A stretch of 12,600 nt of DNA from a virus. Made by a program: the position numbers. The stretch lies in UHGV virus genome UHGV-0240756; one strand, given 5' to 3'. This document shows positions 9,001-12,600 of this stretch, in pieces (positions within the stretch are counted from its first letter, which is position 1; the number at the start of each line of letters is the position of its first letter).

Positions 9001-12000
9001 AGTCCATGCGGTAGTAAATCTGCTTCTTGTCGAAAATCCCTAACTCATTGATTTTTTCGGCAACGCAAAAATGCGCTCTCCGGAAATCTTCAGAGCAATG
9101 GCAATTTTTCAGCGCCCTCAATACGTCCGCATGACGCTTACCAAACGCCTTAGCGATCTGAAAAGAGTCTGTTATTGGTTCGCCATCTGCCGCTGTTACC
9201 AGTTGGCGAAAATCAATACCGTCAACAATCGTCGGATAGTTCATCGCGTTTTACCTTTCAGAAAATTGAGCCTGTCTCACAGAAAAGCCGCCCCGAGATG
9301 GTCGCCACCATATACGGCAGTTCTCAGGCTCAACTTTCTGAAAGGCTCGGGGATGTGATATGCGCGTGAGATGCGCGGTGAAATTCAGATATGAAAAAGC
9401 CAGCGATTAAGCTGGCTCTGTTAATTCAGGCACTGAGTGCGGATATAGTCCTGTGCCCCTTCCAGCTGCTTCTGCATCAGCATCAACCGCTCTCTGAGGG
9501 TGAAATAATCCCGTTCAGCGGTGTCTGCCAGTCGGGGGCCGGTTGCATTATCCACGCCGGAGGTGCCGGTGGCTTCACGCACGGTACCGGAGCAGGTGGC
9601 GTTGATCCGCAGGCGCTTACGACCAGCGGCAACATCAGCACGCAGAGTTTCATTTTCAGCTCTCGCATCGGCTAATTCCCTTGAGTATCTGGCATCAAGC
9701 GCAGCAACATCACGCTGGCGCTGCTGCATGTCAGTAATGGTTGCGTTTGCCAGCTCCAGCTCTCTGGCTTTTTTATCGCGCTGCGCTTTGTAGGTGATGG
9801 CGTTATCACGGTAATGGTCTGTTGCCAGCCACAGCGCACCACAGACCACCAGCAGAATAACGGTAAACGCGGAAAGCATTCGGTTTATGCTCACCCCACC
9901 AGCCCTGCTGAAGTCAACGCCATCCAGGTTATGGAAAGAAAAAGAGCAACCAGCATTAGTGAAAATGAAATACCGACGATTACACAAAGGCCCTTCGCCA
10001 GCATTATGAGTTTGTCTGACATCTTTACCTCTTAATAGCAGTAATTAACCGGGCAACCACCCATAAAAACGGAATCAGCCAGACCAGCAAAAATTTCCAG
10101 TCCATTTTTATCATCTTCATGCTGCGGTAGCTCTCCATGCAGCAAGCAGACCAGCAATCCACTGAACACCTTTTGGGGTGAATTTAACCTGCGTAAAAGC
10201 ATGACCATTGCCCGCCTCGCCCGTTTTCACGCTAAACCGCCCCGCATCCAGGTGATACGAGTAAGGCGTCATTTTTCCAGCGAGGCGATACATTATTCCG
10301 TTCTCCAACAAAAACAGCCGGAAATCGGTTTCTTTGATACCGAGTAACTTAGCAACTTCCCGGAATCCCATCAGACCAGATGCTTCAACATAGTTATCAA
10401 CAAATTCAGCCTTCGGCGCTGCTATTGCCAGTTGATTTTCCAGCACTGCTTTCTGTTCAGCCAGTTTTGCCGCAAATCGCAACGCCTCAGGTAAAGTCCG
10501 GGGGATCTGAATACCATGCATCGCTTTGAGTCTTGCCAGCACAGAACGACGAACGGCCTTTGACTCCCTCATGCCAACGAGCATCATCTGGTCAAAATCC
10601 AGATCATAGTATGCCGTTCTTGTCTGGTTATTGTTTAACCGGAATTTTTTTCCGGTTCCATCAAGCTCTAGCTCATCCTCAATTTTTGCAAGAAACTTAC
10701 GCGGTTCATGAGGGACTTCTCCGGCTTCTGCCCGGGCTGGATTAATAATGTTATTCAGAAAATCCAGACTACTCATGGATATTTCATGATCGACAGAAAT
10801 CATCTCTTTCATGGTTGATTCCTTTTAGTGATGAACCCTGCGCACAGGAATAACCAGCCCAAAGAGGGTTAACCAGACCACTGCCGGTTATCCACCAGGG
10901 CTCATCCTGAAAGGTTCTTTGGTTTATTTACGCTTGTGCGAAGCGCAGAAATGACAAAGGCACCATTACGGTGCCTCTGCGTGAAATAATCTGCCTAACT
11001 TTATTCACTTACATTTTGCCAGTTCGCAGGATTTCGTGTTATCCGCCCGCGCTGGCCAACGTCATTTTTCAGCAAAATATTCTGCTTATCTGTCGATTCC
11101 CCAGCACGCCAGAGCGCTCTCCTGGTCACGACGGGATACCTGACCATAACAGTTATTTGAGCGAATACGGCAGTCCCTGCCACCGTCCTTAATCCACCAG
11201 CGAATCGCCTCACACGCTCCCCTGCGATCGCCTGCATTAATTCGTTTATAAAACGTCGACGGGAAACACTTACCGGGACCAATGTTATACGGACAGAATG
11301 ACGCGATCCCCGCTTTCTGGGGTTCGGTCAGCGGCACTCTGATGTTTTTCTCCACCCACGCCAGCGCTTTATCACGCTCAATGGCGTTAACCTGGTCGCA
11401 TTTTTCCTTCGACAACTTCATGCCCGGAACGACAGGTTTGCCATCCACCACCGTGGCACCCCGGCAGATGGTCCATATACCAGAACCATCACGGTATGCT
11501 GTGGTGTGGTTACCTTCTTTTTCATCCAGAAACTGGTCGAGAATGTCAGGCGCAGATGCGCCTGCAGTAATCAGCGCCAGAATGGCAGCCGACAGGCCGT
11601 ATCTGATTTTTGCGTTCATGGATATTTATCAGGATTTATCGGTTCCGAATCCCTGGATATGTTAAGTCTTCAGCCCGCCAGTGGTGGGCACTGGCGTAAA
11701 CTCAACAATGCGAGATGGCTGCCTCGCAAAGATAATCAAAGCAATGGATGCACTAAGTAAAAATAACGCTGTGTCAGATTACCTGATCGCCGAAATGGAA
11801 CATCTAATTAAAGAAATACCAAAGACAGTTGCTCGTGATGATAAAAGATTCCTCAAGGCTGCTGAAGATGCTCTTTCAACAGTGAAGCGCAGCTTAGATG
11901 CGCCGCGCGATCAAGAATAGTTTCTTTCATTTCATCTGCTGCAAGCACCTCATTTTTTGTTGGGGTGCTTTTTTTCAATTCAGCGATATAGCACTCCAGT

Positions 12001-12600
12001 TTTTCAATGCGTGATTCAATATCATCGTTTTCTGACCGCAATGCCGTCGGTGGCGTCTTCAGAGAACCAGTAATTATTCCCGGTAGTTTTCCTCTGTAGG
12101 TTATCAACACATCCTGCGCCTCTAAAATTATGGGGCGCTTTTCCGGCGACTGCTCATCCCCTTCACATAACCCGGCAGCAATATCCATGAAAAACTGCTT
12201 CGCCTGCTTTTTCGCCTCAGCTTCGTAAAATTCCAGCGTGGCACCTTCAGTACGGTCAAGACTAATCGCCACATATGGCGACAACAACGACGGCTGCCCG
12301 GCAATTTCCAGTGCCACAGTAACAGTAATCTTATCCGGGTAATTATTTATCCCTTTAACAACCAGTTCGTATTGTTTATTCATCGTCTACTCTCCACGCG
12401 CCGCCTTACGCCGGTCTTCTTTAATTTTGAAATACAGGTTCGTCAGATATGTCAGCAGACCAAACAGCAGACTCCCCAGCACGCCTATTGCCGCCCACTG
12501 AGACGGGGAAACCCTGTCCAGCAACTGCAGGAACCAGTAGCCCGTTCCCACCGCTGACGTGGTGTATGACACACCTGTTGTGATTTTTTCCATCTGGTAC

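Follow-up and report, generated by a model that had tools for sequence, protein, structure and literature searches.

Accessory genes in the lysis cassette of virus genome UHGV-0240756: a common Escherichia coli prophage layout, with a conserved RNA leader before two accessory genes

What question does this locus raise?

Why would a phage carry other genes between those with which it bursts its host, and how might such genes be expressed? This is the question posed by a stretch of 12,600 nucleotides (nt) from the virus genome UHGV-0240756, which we call the window and which, along with an intact HK97-type packaging and head module, holds a lysis cassette on its minus strand. Between the holin gene (S), the endolysin gene (R) and the spanin genes (Rz/Rz1) of this cassette sit several others, so that the order reads pinholin, a 176-residue protein of the DUF1327/YdfR family, a signal-anchor-release (SAR) endolysin, a 231-residue KilAC-domain protein (Ant), two micro-open reading frames (micro-ORFs, of 31 and 43 residues) and finally Rz/Rz1. 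Our answer comes in two parts: the interrupted layout is already known, common and present in reference annotations, and novelty is confined to one point, namely that two accessory genes, ant and rha, are each preceded by a folded RNA leader which is conserved and absent from the RNA catalogue. Taken as a whole, and with a probability that we would put at about 0.7, we read the locus as a standard late-operon cassette of the type known from Shiga toxin (Stx) phages and the Qin prophage, holding portable accessory modules that would be expressed by Q-dependent read-through and under a structured leader.

In phage 21, S, R, Rz and Rz1 are contiguous, and lysis begins when the pinholin triggers and the membrane potential collapses; release and activation of the SAR endolysin follow, and disruption of the outer membrane is the work of the spanin. 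The proteins of the window are of the same kinds, namely a PF04971 holin, an endolysin of the same family with a SAR-like N-terminus and the E35/D44/T50 positions, and an embedded two-component spanin, so that, going by family membership, the pinholin would depolarise the inner membrane, the SAR endolysin would be released and cut the wall, and Rz/Rz1 would fuse the membranes. The difference lies in the spacing, since here S and R are separated by 530 + 233 nt and R and Rz by 1206 nt.

Is an interrupted cassette unusual?

The answer is no. The initial annotation had the cassette interrupted at both the S|R and the R|Rz junctions, and profile searches did indeed find every part that it named on the minus strand; what fell away was its view of the arrangement as something out of the ordinary. 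We surveyed synteny in 80 viral loci from IMG/VR, whose endolysins are 93-99% identical and in which the other parts were placed by tblastn, and this comparison found the inserts conserved and the arrangement to be the norm in the lineage. The gap between S and R runs from 374 to 1310 nt in all 72 loci that contain S and is never near zero; in 61 of these it is filled by the DUF1327 N-domain, and in the other 11 by a protein of 185-223 residues matching the C-terminal modules of long YdfR forms, which stand alone in some cassettes. The gap between R and Rz falls into classes of 29 nt (the canonical arrangement, four loci), about 307 (23 loci), about 496 (12), 651 (20), about 1000 (nine) and 1267 nt, the last being the window's own type. 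Each class has a different filling, giving about six alternatives, and the class of about 1000 nt carries an alternative Ant of the P22_AR_N type (189 residues). As part of the best explanation, we would regard the S|R and R|Rz junctions as places where recombination has long been frequent and where one accessory gene can stand in for another.

Named phages tell the same story. A megablast search against phage records gave 511 matches, and Escherichia phage PhiR5_1 (PV340545) is 96.6% identical over 90% coverage, with an annotated order of holin, DUF1327 protein, an opposite-strand ORF, lysozyme, a 696-nt ORF, three small ORFs and Rz; it differs from the window in having a 211-residue YdfR and one extra small ORF before Rz. 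Stx2 phage 86 (NC_008464) runs S, YdfR family, opposite-strand ORF, R, ant, Rz/Rz1 and bor, the differences being its other type of ant (P22_AR_N + ORF11CD3, 189 residues) and its 268-residue YdfR. Stx1 phage phi-O153 (AY838795) is annotated as S, R, ant and Rz, and Lys8385Vzw (MT225100), which differs in being without YdfR, runs S, R, antirepressor, Rz and Rha, so that an ant gene between R and Rz of Stx phages, which the initial annotation had mentioned, is borne out by these last three records. Over their shared parts the Stx-phage cassettes and PhiR5_1 have the same order as the window at 89-97% nucleotide identity, and the ant gene and the 43-residue ORF are annotated there. Ant families are also listed beside the S/R/Rz cassette in a survey of 279 Stx phages (PMC8136144).

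The same holds for bacterial genomes, where 5,219 of 5,426 complete E. coli genomes match some part of the cassette and 164 have at least 80% of its 3.3 kb in one place. The gene order is annotated in O157:H7 and other E. coli genomes, with names from the Prokaryotic Genome Annotation Pipeline (PGAP) that run class II holin, YdfR family protein, lysozyme, phage antirepressor (KilAC), hypothetical protein (the 43-residue ORF) and lysis protein. Even the K-12 reference genome has the layout, in its Qin prophage (essQ-ydfR-rrrQ-rzpQ/rzoQ), where holin, DUF1327 gene and lysozyme come in the same order and orientation. There are differences, of course: the Qin YdfR is a 103-residue N-domain that abuts rrrQ with no opposite-strand ORF, rrrQ overlaps rzpQ with neither ant nor micro-ORFs between them, and the Qin spanin is of the DUF2514 type.

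What stands before ant and rha?

It is in front of the accessory genes that the locus becomes really interesting. The ant gene (10812..10117, minus strand, as for all features unless we say otherwise) starts 273 nt after the endolysin, and this gap holds a series of elements whose order is fixed among the lysis-linked copies: an intrinsic terminator, the motif GTATCYG, a small GC hairpin, some 8-12 nt of linker rich in A and C, the long hairpin, which is irregular, and AAAAGG, with the ATG following 7-10 nt on. The terminator-like hairpin, with an interrupted U tract, spans 10945..10979 (stem 10955-10979; -18.8 kcal/mol, z -4.4, 0 of 200 shuffles as good). Next comes a small GCGC...GCGC hairpin at 10931..10946, present in all the instances that we list, whose stem has by inspection alone a compensating change (GCGCC/GGCGC vs GCGCT/AGCGC) between instances. 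The long structured leader, of about 91 model positions, occupies 10827-10920 (46.2 bits, E 3e-8, with covariance model R2), and the Shine-Dalgarno sequence AAGGA of ant lies just downstream at about 10819-10823.

A second copy stands before the gene for a Rha-family regulator of 182 residues (9244..8696, pRha + ORF11CD3; PF09669 E 6.6e-23, PF10549 E 1e-24, TIGR02681), which is the next accessory module after the cassette, just downstream of Rz. Here the terminator-like hairpin, found by terminator scan at 9398-9417 (-14.4 kcal/mol, 1 of 200 shuffles as good), begins 4 nt past the Rz stop and is the first element of the rha module, outside the span that the initial annotation had flagged; a small hairpin follows at 9362-9376 and the long leader at 9261-9351 (37 bits with model R1, 64.4 bits with R2, E 9e-13, and 46.3 bits with R3), ahead of the ATG at 9244. 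The initial annotation had noticed the two terminator-like hairpins, which are real and fold stably on the minus strand, and had missed both of the elements of about 91 nt.

A covariance model made from a single Pantoea sequence recovered 13 instances of the leader, and a refined model found 32 among the collected loci, two of them in the window (others lie in L096, L017, L047, L060, L010, L088, L093, L097, L099 and L101-L105). A narrow exact pattern retrieved at least 120 IMG/VR stretches, and applying the covariance model to the 80 loci returned (L141-L220) confirmed 66 further hits, every one of them preceded by a T run at a distance of 100 nt at most, and 64 followed by an ORF start no more than 50 nt away. 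Most of the genes behind the leader are Rha, and KilA-N, KilAC, AntA, P22_AR_N, HNH_3 and TerB occur as well.

What, then, is the fold? Alignments were built with single-sequence covariance models followed by re-alignment to them, MAFFT alignments being structurally wrong for RNAalifold. On the alignment fitted to the first pairing register, with 20 distinct sequences, 91.4% of cells are paired, 23 of 29 pairs have double changes, and the covariation score is 0.562, compared with 0.07-0.15 in controls that shift the 3' partners by 1-3 columns; in 500 shuffles values as high as those observed never arose. There is also a second register, which excludes the first and in which the middle helices give their 5' strand to a duplex with the basal helix's 3' strand and 7 more nt. 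Its duplex has -13.6 to -23.9 kcal/mol in 20 of 20 sequences (mean z -5.3), it is the lower-energy constrained fold in 12 of the 20, both window copies included, and on its own model 91.2% of cells are paired, with double changes in 20 of 21 pairs and a score of 0.652 (0.07-0.16 when slid). The 7-8 nt ahead of the Shine-Dalgarno sequence are free in one register and not in the other. Evidence that this is a real RNA structure of the sense strand comes from the slid-partner controls and from the large number of G-U pairs.

Phages offer several precedents: P22 sar and P1/P7 c4 are cases in which RNA controls phage ant genes, and T7 has intercistronic RNase III hairpins. The leader resembles the former in being a conserved RNA structure immediately before an antirepressor-type gene, and the latter in shape and position, as an irregular, elongated hairpin, interrupted by an asymmetric internal loop, that stands right in front of the Shine-Dalgarno sequence of the following gene. 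It differs from sar and c4 in lying on the sense strand and in having no Rfam match to sar or C4: a scan of Rfam 15 over both leaders gave miRNA-precursor models as its best hits, at 17-22 bits against gathering scores of 68-90, and neither sar, C4 nor any other family. Our literature search for a leader RNA of Rha or Ant found no paper. It is tempting to think of the leader as an undescribed, widespread cis-regulatory RNA of enterobacterial temperate phages, gating Rha, KilA-N and Ant (KilAC, AntA, P22_AR_N) genes at the lysis-packaging junction, with its exclusive registers making it either a switch between two stable states or a place of processing, by RNase III or RNase E for example, and to think of the Rz-chained micro-peptides, micro-ORF B and its relatives, more loosely, as unrecognised components of the lysis cassette; we hold this larger idea tentatively, at slightly less than an even bet.

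How might the inserts be expressed?

The initial annotation had supposed that the hairpins might split the cassette into separate transcription units, and this part of it finds little favour with us, since no sigma-70-like promoter follows either hairpin and Acinetobacter homologues have only about 30 nt between terminator and ATG. A consensus sigma-70 scan of the minus strand from 8600 to 12600 found no promoter-like site, and inspection by eye of 16 leaders, from the terminator to the long hairpin, found no conserved -10 hexamer with an invariant T at position 6. With some 30 nt available, some of the distant homologues have no room for a promoter at all. Intrinsic terminators do not stop Q-modified RNA polymerase in the late operons of lambdoid phages, so that terminators at the 5' side would not create separate late units; because no promoter was found, expression by Q-antiterminated read-through is in our judgement the most likely route.

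Judged from sequence, the hairpins are the 5' ends of portable accessory-gene modules. The ant module would consist of the intrinsic terminator, the small GC hairpin, the covarying hairpin of about 91 nt, the Shine-Dalgarno sequence, the KilAC gene and micro-ORF A, and a second module with the same leader would carry rha just downstream of Rz. The S|R slot would hold a YdfR/DUF1327 gene translationally coupled to the holin, and the R|Rz slot the ant module and two membrane-peptide genes chained to Rz. The modules being promoterless on this reading, the 5' terminator would block unmodified polymerase and keep the regulators silent in the lysogen; Q-modified polymerase would then read through, so that the inserts would be made only in late lytic growth, and the structured leader would probably set the translation or processing of the gene downstream.

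How do these modules compare with morons? The likenesses to lambdoid morons (Juhala et al. 2000, cited in PMC4104026), as far as that account describes them, are inserts between genes that are adjacent in relatives, a Q-dependent late region and a factor-independent terminator at the border. S indeed abuts R in Lys8385Vzw, and R abuts Rz, at 29 nt, in four loci. The differences from the morons of that account are that here the consensus scan detected no promoter, the terminator is 5' and followed by a structured leader, and the genes are chained to their neighbours: the hairpin of ant lies upstream of it (10955-10979), ant runs on into the micro-ORFs and Rz, and the next hairpin comes after Rz.

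What are the inserted genes?

Ant (PF03374 E 4.7e-28 over residues 125-224; phrog_63) belongs to a family in which we count 1366 homologues, with full-length relatives at 58-99% identity in many Enterobacterales (Escherichia, Salmonella, Plesiomonas, Pantoea, Cronobacter, Enterobacter, Citrobacter, Providencia, Serratia and Yersinia). Of six homologues examined in other genera, five lie inside or just after a lysis cassette of unrelated holin and endolysin families: holin, lysozyme and a DUF2570 spanin in Yersinia, holin_3_3 in Enterobacter, holin_3_1, M15 peptidase, ANT, AntA and a DUF2514 spanin in Plesiomonas, holin_8 and holin_3_7 with a GH108 endolysin in Salmonella, and a cassette-linked copy in Pantoea. 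The lysis-linked copies share about 170 nt of conserved sequence upstream of the ATG, and the terminator hairpin at 10955-10979, as the first element of the module, travels with ant into other genera; the Providencia copy, from an early region, is without the shared upstream stretch. By this distribution the ant module is portable across phages.

A second, unrelated Ant (P22_AR_N + ORF11CD3, 188-189 residues) takes the same R-Rz position elsewhere (L017 5805-6374, L047, and L002 3088-3657), behind the same terminator and RNA leader and with micro-ORF B after it. The KilAC homologues of Pseudomonas and Acinetobacter (L107-L116, L119, L120, L123, L126, L129, L133) are without the long hairpin and have an intrinsic terminator 30-60 nt before the start codon, with a short upstream ORF in some. 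The ant of Phi24B studied by Fogg et al. (PMC3064807) is a different gene, in the nin region upstream of qut.

As to what Ant does, our search for papers on the function of a lysis-cassette ant found none, and a search of the Protein Data Bank (PDB) by sequence gave no solved relative. The best lead comes from Listeria AriS, whose ANT/KilAC domain inhibits the host SOS response and whose N-terminal domain regulates the phage (PMC9043618), and by analogy with such homologues the KilAC protein might act on the repressor or SOS control of co-resident prophages. AriS differs in belonging to a Gram-positive phage and in having no detectable similarity outside the ANT/KilAC domain, while here the N-domain has no Pfam family, even when its 120 residues are scanned alone, and the site is the lysis cassette. 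The N-terminus shares a motif, YY.(L/M)DF...M(L/M)LV, with the window's own Rha (BLASTP E 0.19), from which we would guess that it is possibly a Rha-like domain.

The YdfR-family gene (12383..11853; PF07041 DUF1327 E 4.3e-40; phrog_2091, full length, E 1e-80) encodes a DUF1327 domain in residues 1-112 (profile positions 1-92 of 93) and then a helical C-terminal module of 64 residues. Only 3 nt separate its start from the holin stop, and the end of the holin gene contains the motif GGAGAG; because of this spacing and this motif we accept the close coupling with the holin, proposed in the initial annotation, as real. Across 290 homologues of 98-305 residues the family has a common N-domain with 34 invariant columns and mosaic C-termini, and those members for which a source is named all come from Escherichia or Shigella. 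Lengths of 114, 176, 183, 211, 246, 268, 296 and 305 residues reflect one N-domain joined to differing C-modules (P0002, P0012, P0007, P0047 and P0054, for example). Residues 1-72 of K-12 YdfR bind the catalytic, N-terminal half of RNase E and co-purify RNA, and the same paper lists the protein as cytoplasmic and reports that its overproduction had little effect on the transcriptome (PMC13232886). By analogy with these homologues the DUF1327 protein of the window may bind RNase E; a sequence search of the PDB with it gave no match.

Behind this gene lies a 233-nt gap before the endolysin, with an ORF on the opposite strand inside it that the initial annotation had missed (plus strand, 11681..11920; 79 residues from GTG 11681 or 70 from ATG 11708). 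It converges on the DUF1327 gene and overlaps its last 68 nt. Whether it is a coding sequence is uncertain: its match to phrog_18136 (E 5e-41) comes solely from near-identical annotated copies, it has no Pfam or NCBIfam family and no clear Shine-Dalgarno sequence, and the plus-strand ORFs at the same slot in PhiR5_1 and phage 86 give no convincing alignment with it (25-26% identity, gappy). A 'DUF1823' label on the PhiR5_1 ORF is spurious (E 0.023, failing the cut-off), and other cassettes have unrelated opposite-strand ORFs of 86, 104-106 and 233 residues at this slot. Some 23 nt past the stop of the plus-strand ORF, within the DUF1327 coding sequence, is a terminator-like hairpin on the plus strand (11943-11970, a 10-bp stem and then T7), also missed before, which is the top hit of the terminator scan (-18.2 kcal/mol, 0 of 200 shuffles as good).

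The two micro-ORFs close the series. Micro-ORF A (10120..10025, 31 residues, a single hydrophobic helix, MKMIKMDWKFLLVWLIPFLWVVARLITAIKR) starts within the ant stop as ATGA, is annotated in PhiR5_1 as a 96-nt coding sequence and weakly matches phrog_6632. Longer relatives of 57-70 residues with the same membrane segment occur in cassettes without ant, and micro-ORF A looks like the membrane segment of this longer form, the N-terminus of which (DFSKLIRE(L/I)R) was apparently replaced upon insertion of ant. Micro-ORF B (10022..9891, 43 residues; phrog_4906 E 3e-24; PGAP WP_001280922/3) is a small membrane protein, MSDKLIMLAK followed by a hydrophobic helix, that begins 2 nt after micro-ORF A with its own AAGAGG Shine-Dalgarno sequence and ends 11 nt before Rz. 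It is very probably a real gene, being of constant length with ten invariant columns across 106 protein clusters, intact in 18 nucleotide contexts, and under a ratio of nonsynonymous to synonymous differences (pN/pS) of 0.54, the lowest of the six frames; it occurs in most R-Rz classes, in five different upstream contexts and always with a Shine-Dalgarno sequence of its own. The shorter R-Rz fillings are likewise genes for small single-helix membrane peptides, and gaps without ant hold arrays of one to four of them, such as ...ISRALAFAIKWVAVGVAVSPMLYGLAKLVIALKS and MSAELIRAMAFAIRIVAIAVLVWAIRWW (plus strand in locus coordinates: L010 5658-5873, L026 5612-6175, L012 5658-5831, L046 5717-5869 and L008 5263-5576).

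How else could the locus be read?

The alternative that survives best, though we still think it unlikely, is that the inserts are lysis accessories, with the DUF1327 protein modulating pinholin triggering and the membrane peptides tuning holin or spanin in the manner of antiholins or spanin regulators. A slot that is filled in 72 of 72 loci, by a gene coupled to S, is what one would expect of this idea, as is the fact that most gap classes have micro-ORF B, or a peptide related to it, directly before Rz, every copy with a Shine-Dalgarno sequence of its own and all of them single-helix membrane peptides. It sits badly with the phages in which S abuts R or R abuts Rz, with K-12 YdfR as a cytoplasmic RNase E binder that hardly alters the transcriptome when overproduced, with selection on micro-ORF B that is moderate at a pN/pS of 0.54, and with family searches that gave no homology to known lysis regulators.

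Somewhat less likely again is that the inserts are autonomous morons, each with its own promoter and terminator, expressed in the lysogen for conversion, superinfection exclusion or anti-defence, so that the hairpins would mark the boundaries of units. The ant block is indeed flanked by hairpin and T-tract elements, the S-R slot has an opposite-strand ORF with its own terminator-like hairpin, much like lambda bor, the slots are mosaic as moron sites are, and small membrane peptides are often exclusion proteins. Yet there is no sigma-70-like site on the coding strand, each module has its terminator on the 5' side and takes it along when it moves, some homologues leave about 30 nt from terminator to ATG, ant, the micro-ORFs and Rz are chained by spacers of 0-11 nt, and DUF1327 is coupled to S.

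We find it improbable, too, that the long hairpin works at the level of DNA, as a linker for recombination whose shared homology would let phages swap accessory genes (the 'boundary sequence' of lambdoid mosaicism) or as a single-stranded recombination site. It does flank many different genes at mosaic junctions, and its sequence is similar enough for the narrow exact pattern to have found so many viral stretches. Against this, compensatory double changes affect 20-23 pairs, the many G-U pairs would turn into A-C mismatches on the opposite strand or in cruciforms formed from the duplex, the element keeps one orientation and a fixed distance from the Shine-Dalgarno sequence, and antisense matches score far lower (32.7 vs 123 bits; 16.5 vs 63.9 bits). 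Finally, the notion of a decaying cryptic-prophage remnant with junk ORFs, to which a truncated YdfR pseudogene in some relatives and the many such cassettes in defective prophages (K-12 Qin) might lend colour, is very hard to credit given that all ORFs are intact, with purifying selection wherever variants exist, that the complete genome of PhiR5_1 (host E. coli C) has the same layout, and that the packaging and head module is intact. Nor are the inserts pseudogenes, which the initial annotation had named as a finding that would refute it: they are intact and conserved, as the full-length Ant relatives, the 18 contexts of micro-ORF B and a pN/pS of 0.51 for the DUF1327 gene attest.

This brings us back to the standard late-operon cassette with portable, read-through modules, and several points weigh against it in turn. 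Q lies outside the window, and its part is taken from related loci with antiterminator genes upstream of the lysis genes; the promoter scan covered the sigma-70 consensus, and a promoter that is weak or needs an activator may lie between terminator and gene. Both RNA alignments were fitted to their own models, which inflates the pairing counts and leans towards each structure, and the two registers are not both the functional fold at one moment. Insert-free phages exist (Lys8385Vzw without DUF1327, and the four loci with R abutting Rz), so that the inserts are dispensable for lysis. The roles suggested for the proteins come from distant homologues, K-12 YdfR for RNase E and the Listeria protein for SOS, and structure prediction is of little help: the AlphaFold2 model of the DUF1327 protein is weak, with a predicted local distance difference test score (pLDDT) of 57 and no match in a PDB fold search (best E 0.05, TM about 0.2), and that of Ant (pLDDT 75) gave weak winged-helix-like matches, all with E > 0.2, that we did not use.

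What about the lysis genes themselves?

Purifying selection is visible in every part of the cassette that has variants. The holin (12593..12387) is an S21-type class II holin, or pinholin (PF04971 E 6.2e-33, residues 2-64; phrog_9876/phrog_20 holin), of which 68 residues lie inside the window; a further start upstream (MYQM..., 71 residues) probably lies off the window's end by 2-9 nt, its ATG, the upper one of the dual start by which this class makes holin and antiholin, being expected at about 12602-12600, and homologous loci annotate a class II holin of 216 nt (71 residues). The endolysin (11619..11086, 177 residues, R21 type; PF00959 E 1.4e-24) has the triad E35-x8-D44-x5-T50 and, at residues 8-24 (GLSAAILALITAGASAP), a Gly/Ala/Ser-rich, weakly hydrophobic stretch, both read from the translation and the latter with no topology predictor; its pN/pS is 0.09 over 70 variants. 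Rz, the inner-membrane spanin (9879..9421, 152 residues; PF03245 E 2.4e-50, phrog_13), wholly contains in its +1 frame the outer-membrane lipoprotein Rz1 (9668..9483, 61 residues; PF06085 E 3e-21; lipobox VSAC). A 188-residue version of Rz from a TTG start in the ORF listing is too long, the real start being the ATG at 9879.

Directly after the endolysin stop is a conserved non-coding stretch of about 100 nt (10990..11085), recognised from alignments, with near-invariant blocks GCAGAATATTTTGCTGAAAAAT ... CGGATAACACGAAATCCTGCGAACTGGCAAAA ... AAGTGAATAAA that are common to all R-Rz classes except the canonical one of 29 nt. Its mean difference of 0.164 makes it better conserved than the synonymous sites of R (pS 0.237 over the whole gene and 0.347 over its last 150 nt), and we found in it no convincing covarying structure with RNAalifold, no Rfam match and no ORF. 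Every R-Rz gap class has, about 105-140 nt past the end of R, a hairpin followed by a T tract, which comes in two versions of unrelated sequence. The anti-sRNAs (anti-small RNAs) AgvB and AsxR (Tree et al. 2014), which we considered for this region, map near pR'/stx.

What does this mean for the biology of these phages?

The interrupted layout itself changes nothing, as it is the normal form of the cassette in E. coli prophages, Stx phages included. The point of interest is how the inserts are expressed, since it is regulators of the Ant, Rha and KilA-N type that sit in the late operon of Stx phages and of the co-resident lambdoid prophages of O157:H7. Three parts seem to us to deserve a further look, namely the composite leader, the micro-peptides chained to Rz and the conserved non-coding sequence behind R, and the reported contact between YdfR and RNase E suggests a late-phase link to RNA decay. 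If it is true that the regulators act on repressors or on SOS, then the induction of one prophage would be coupled to that of others, and hence to toxin release, and the shared covarying leader would offer a concrete handle on the timing and amount of regulator expression.

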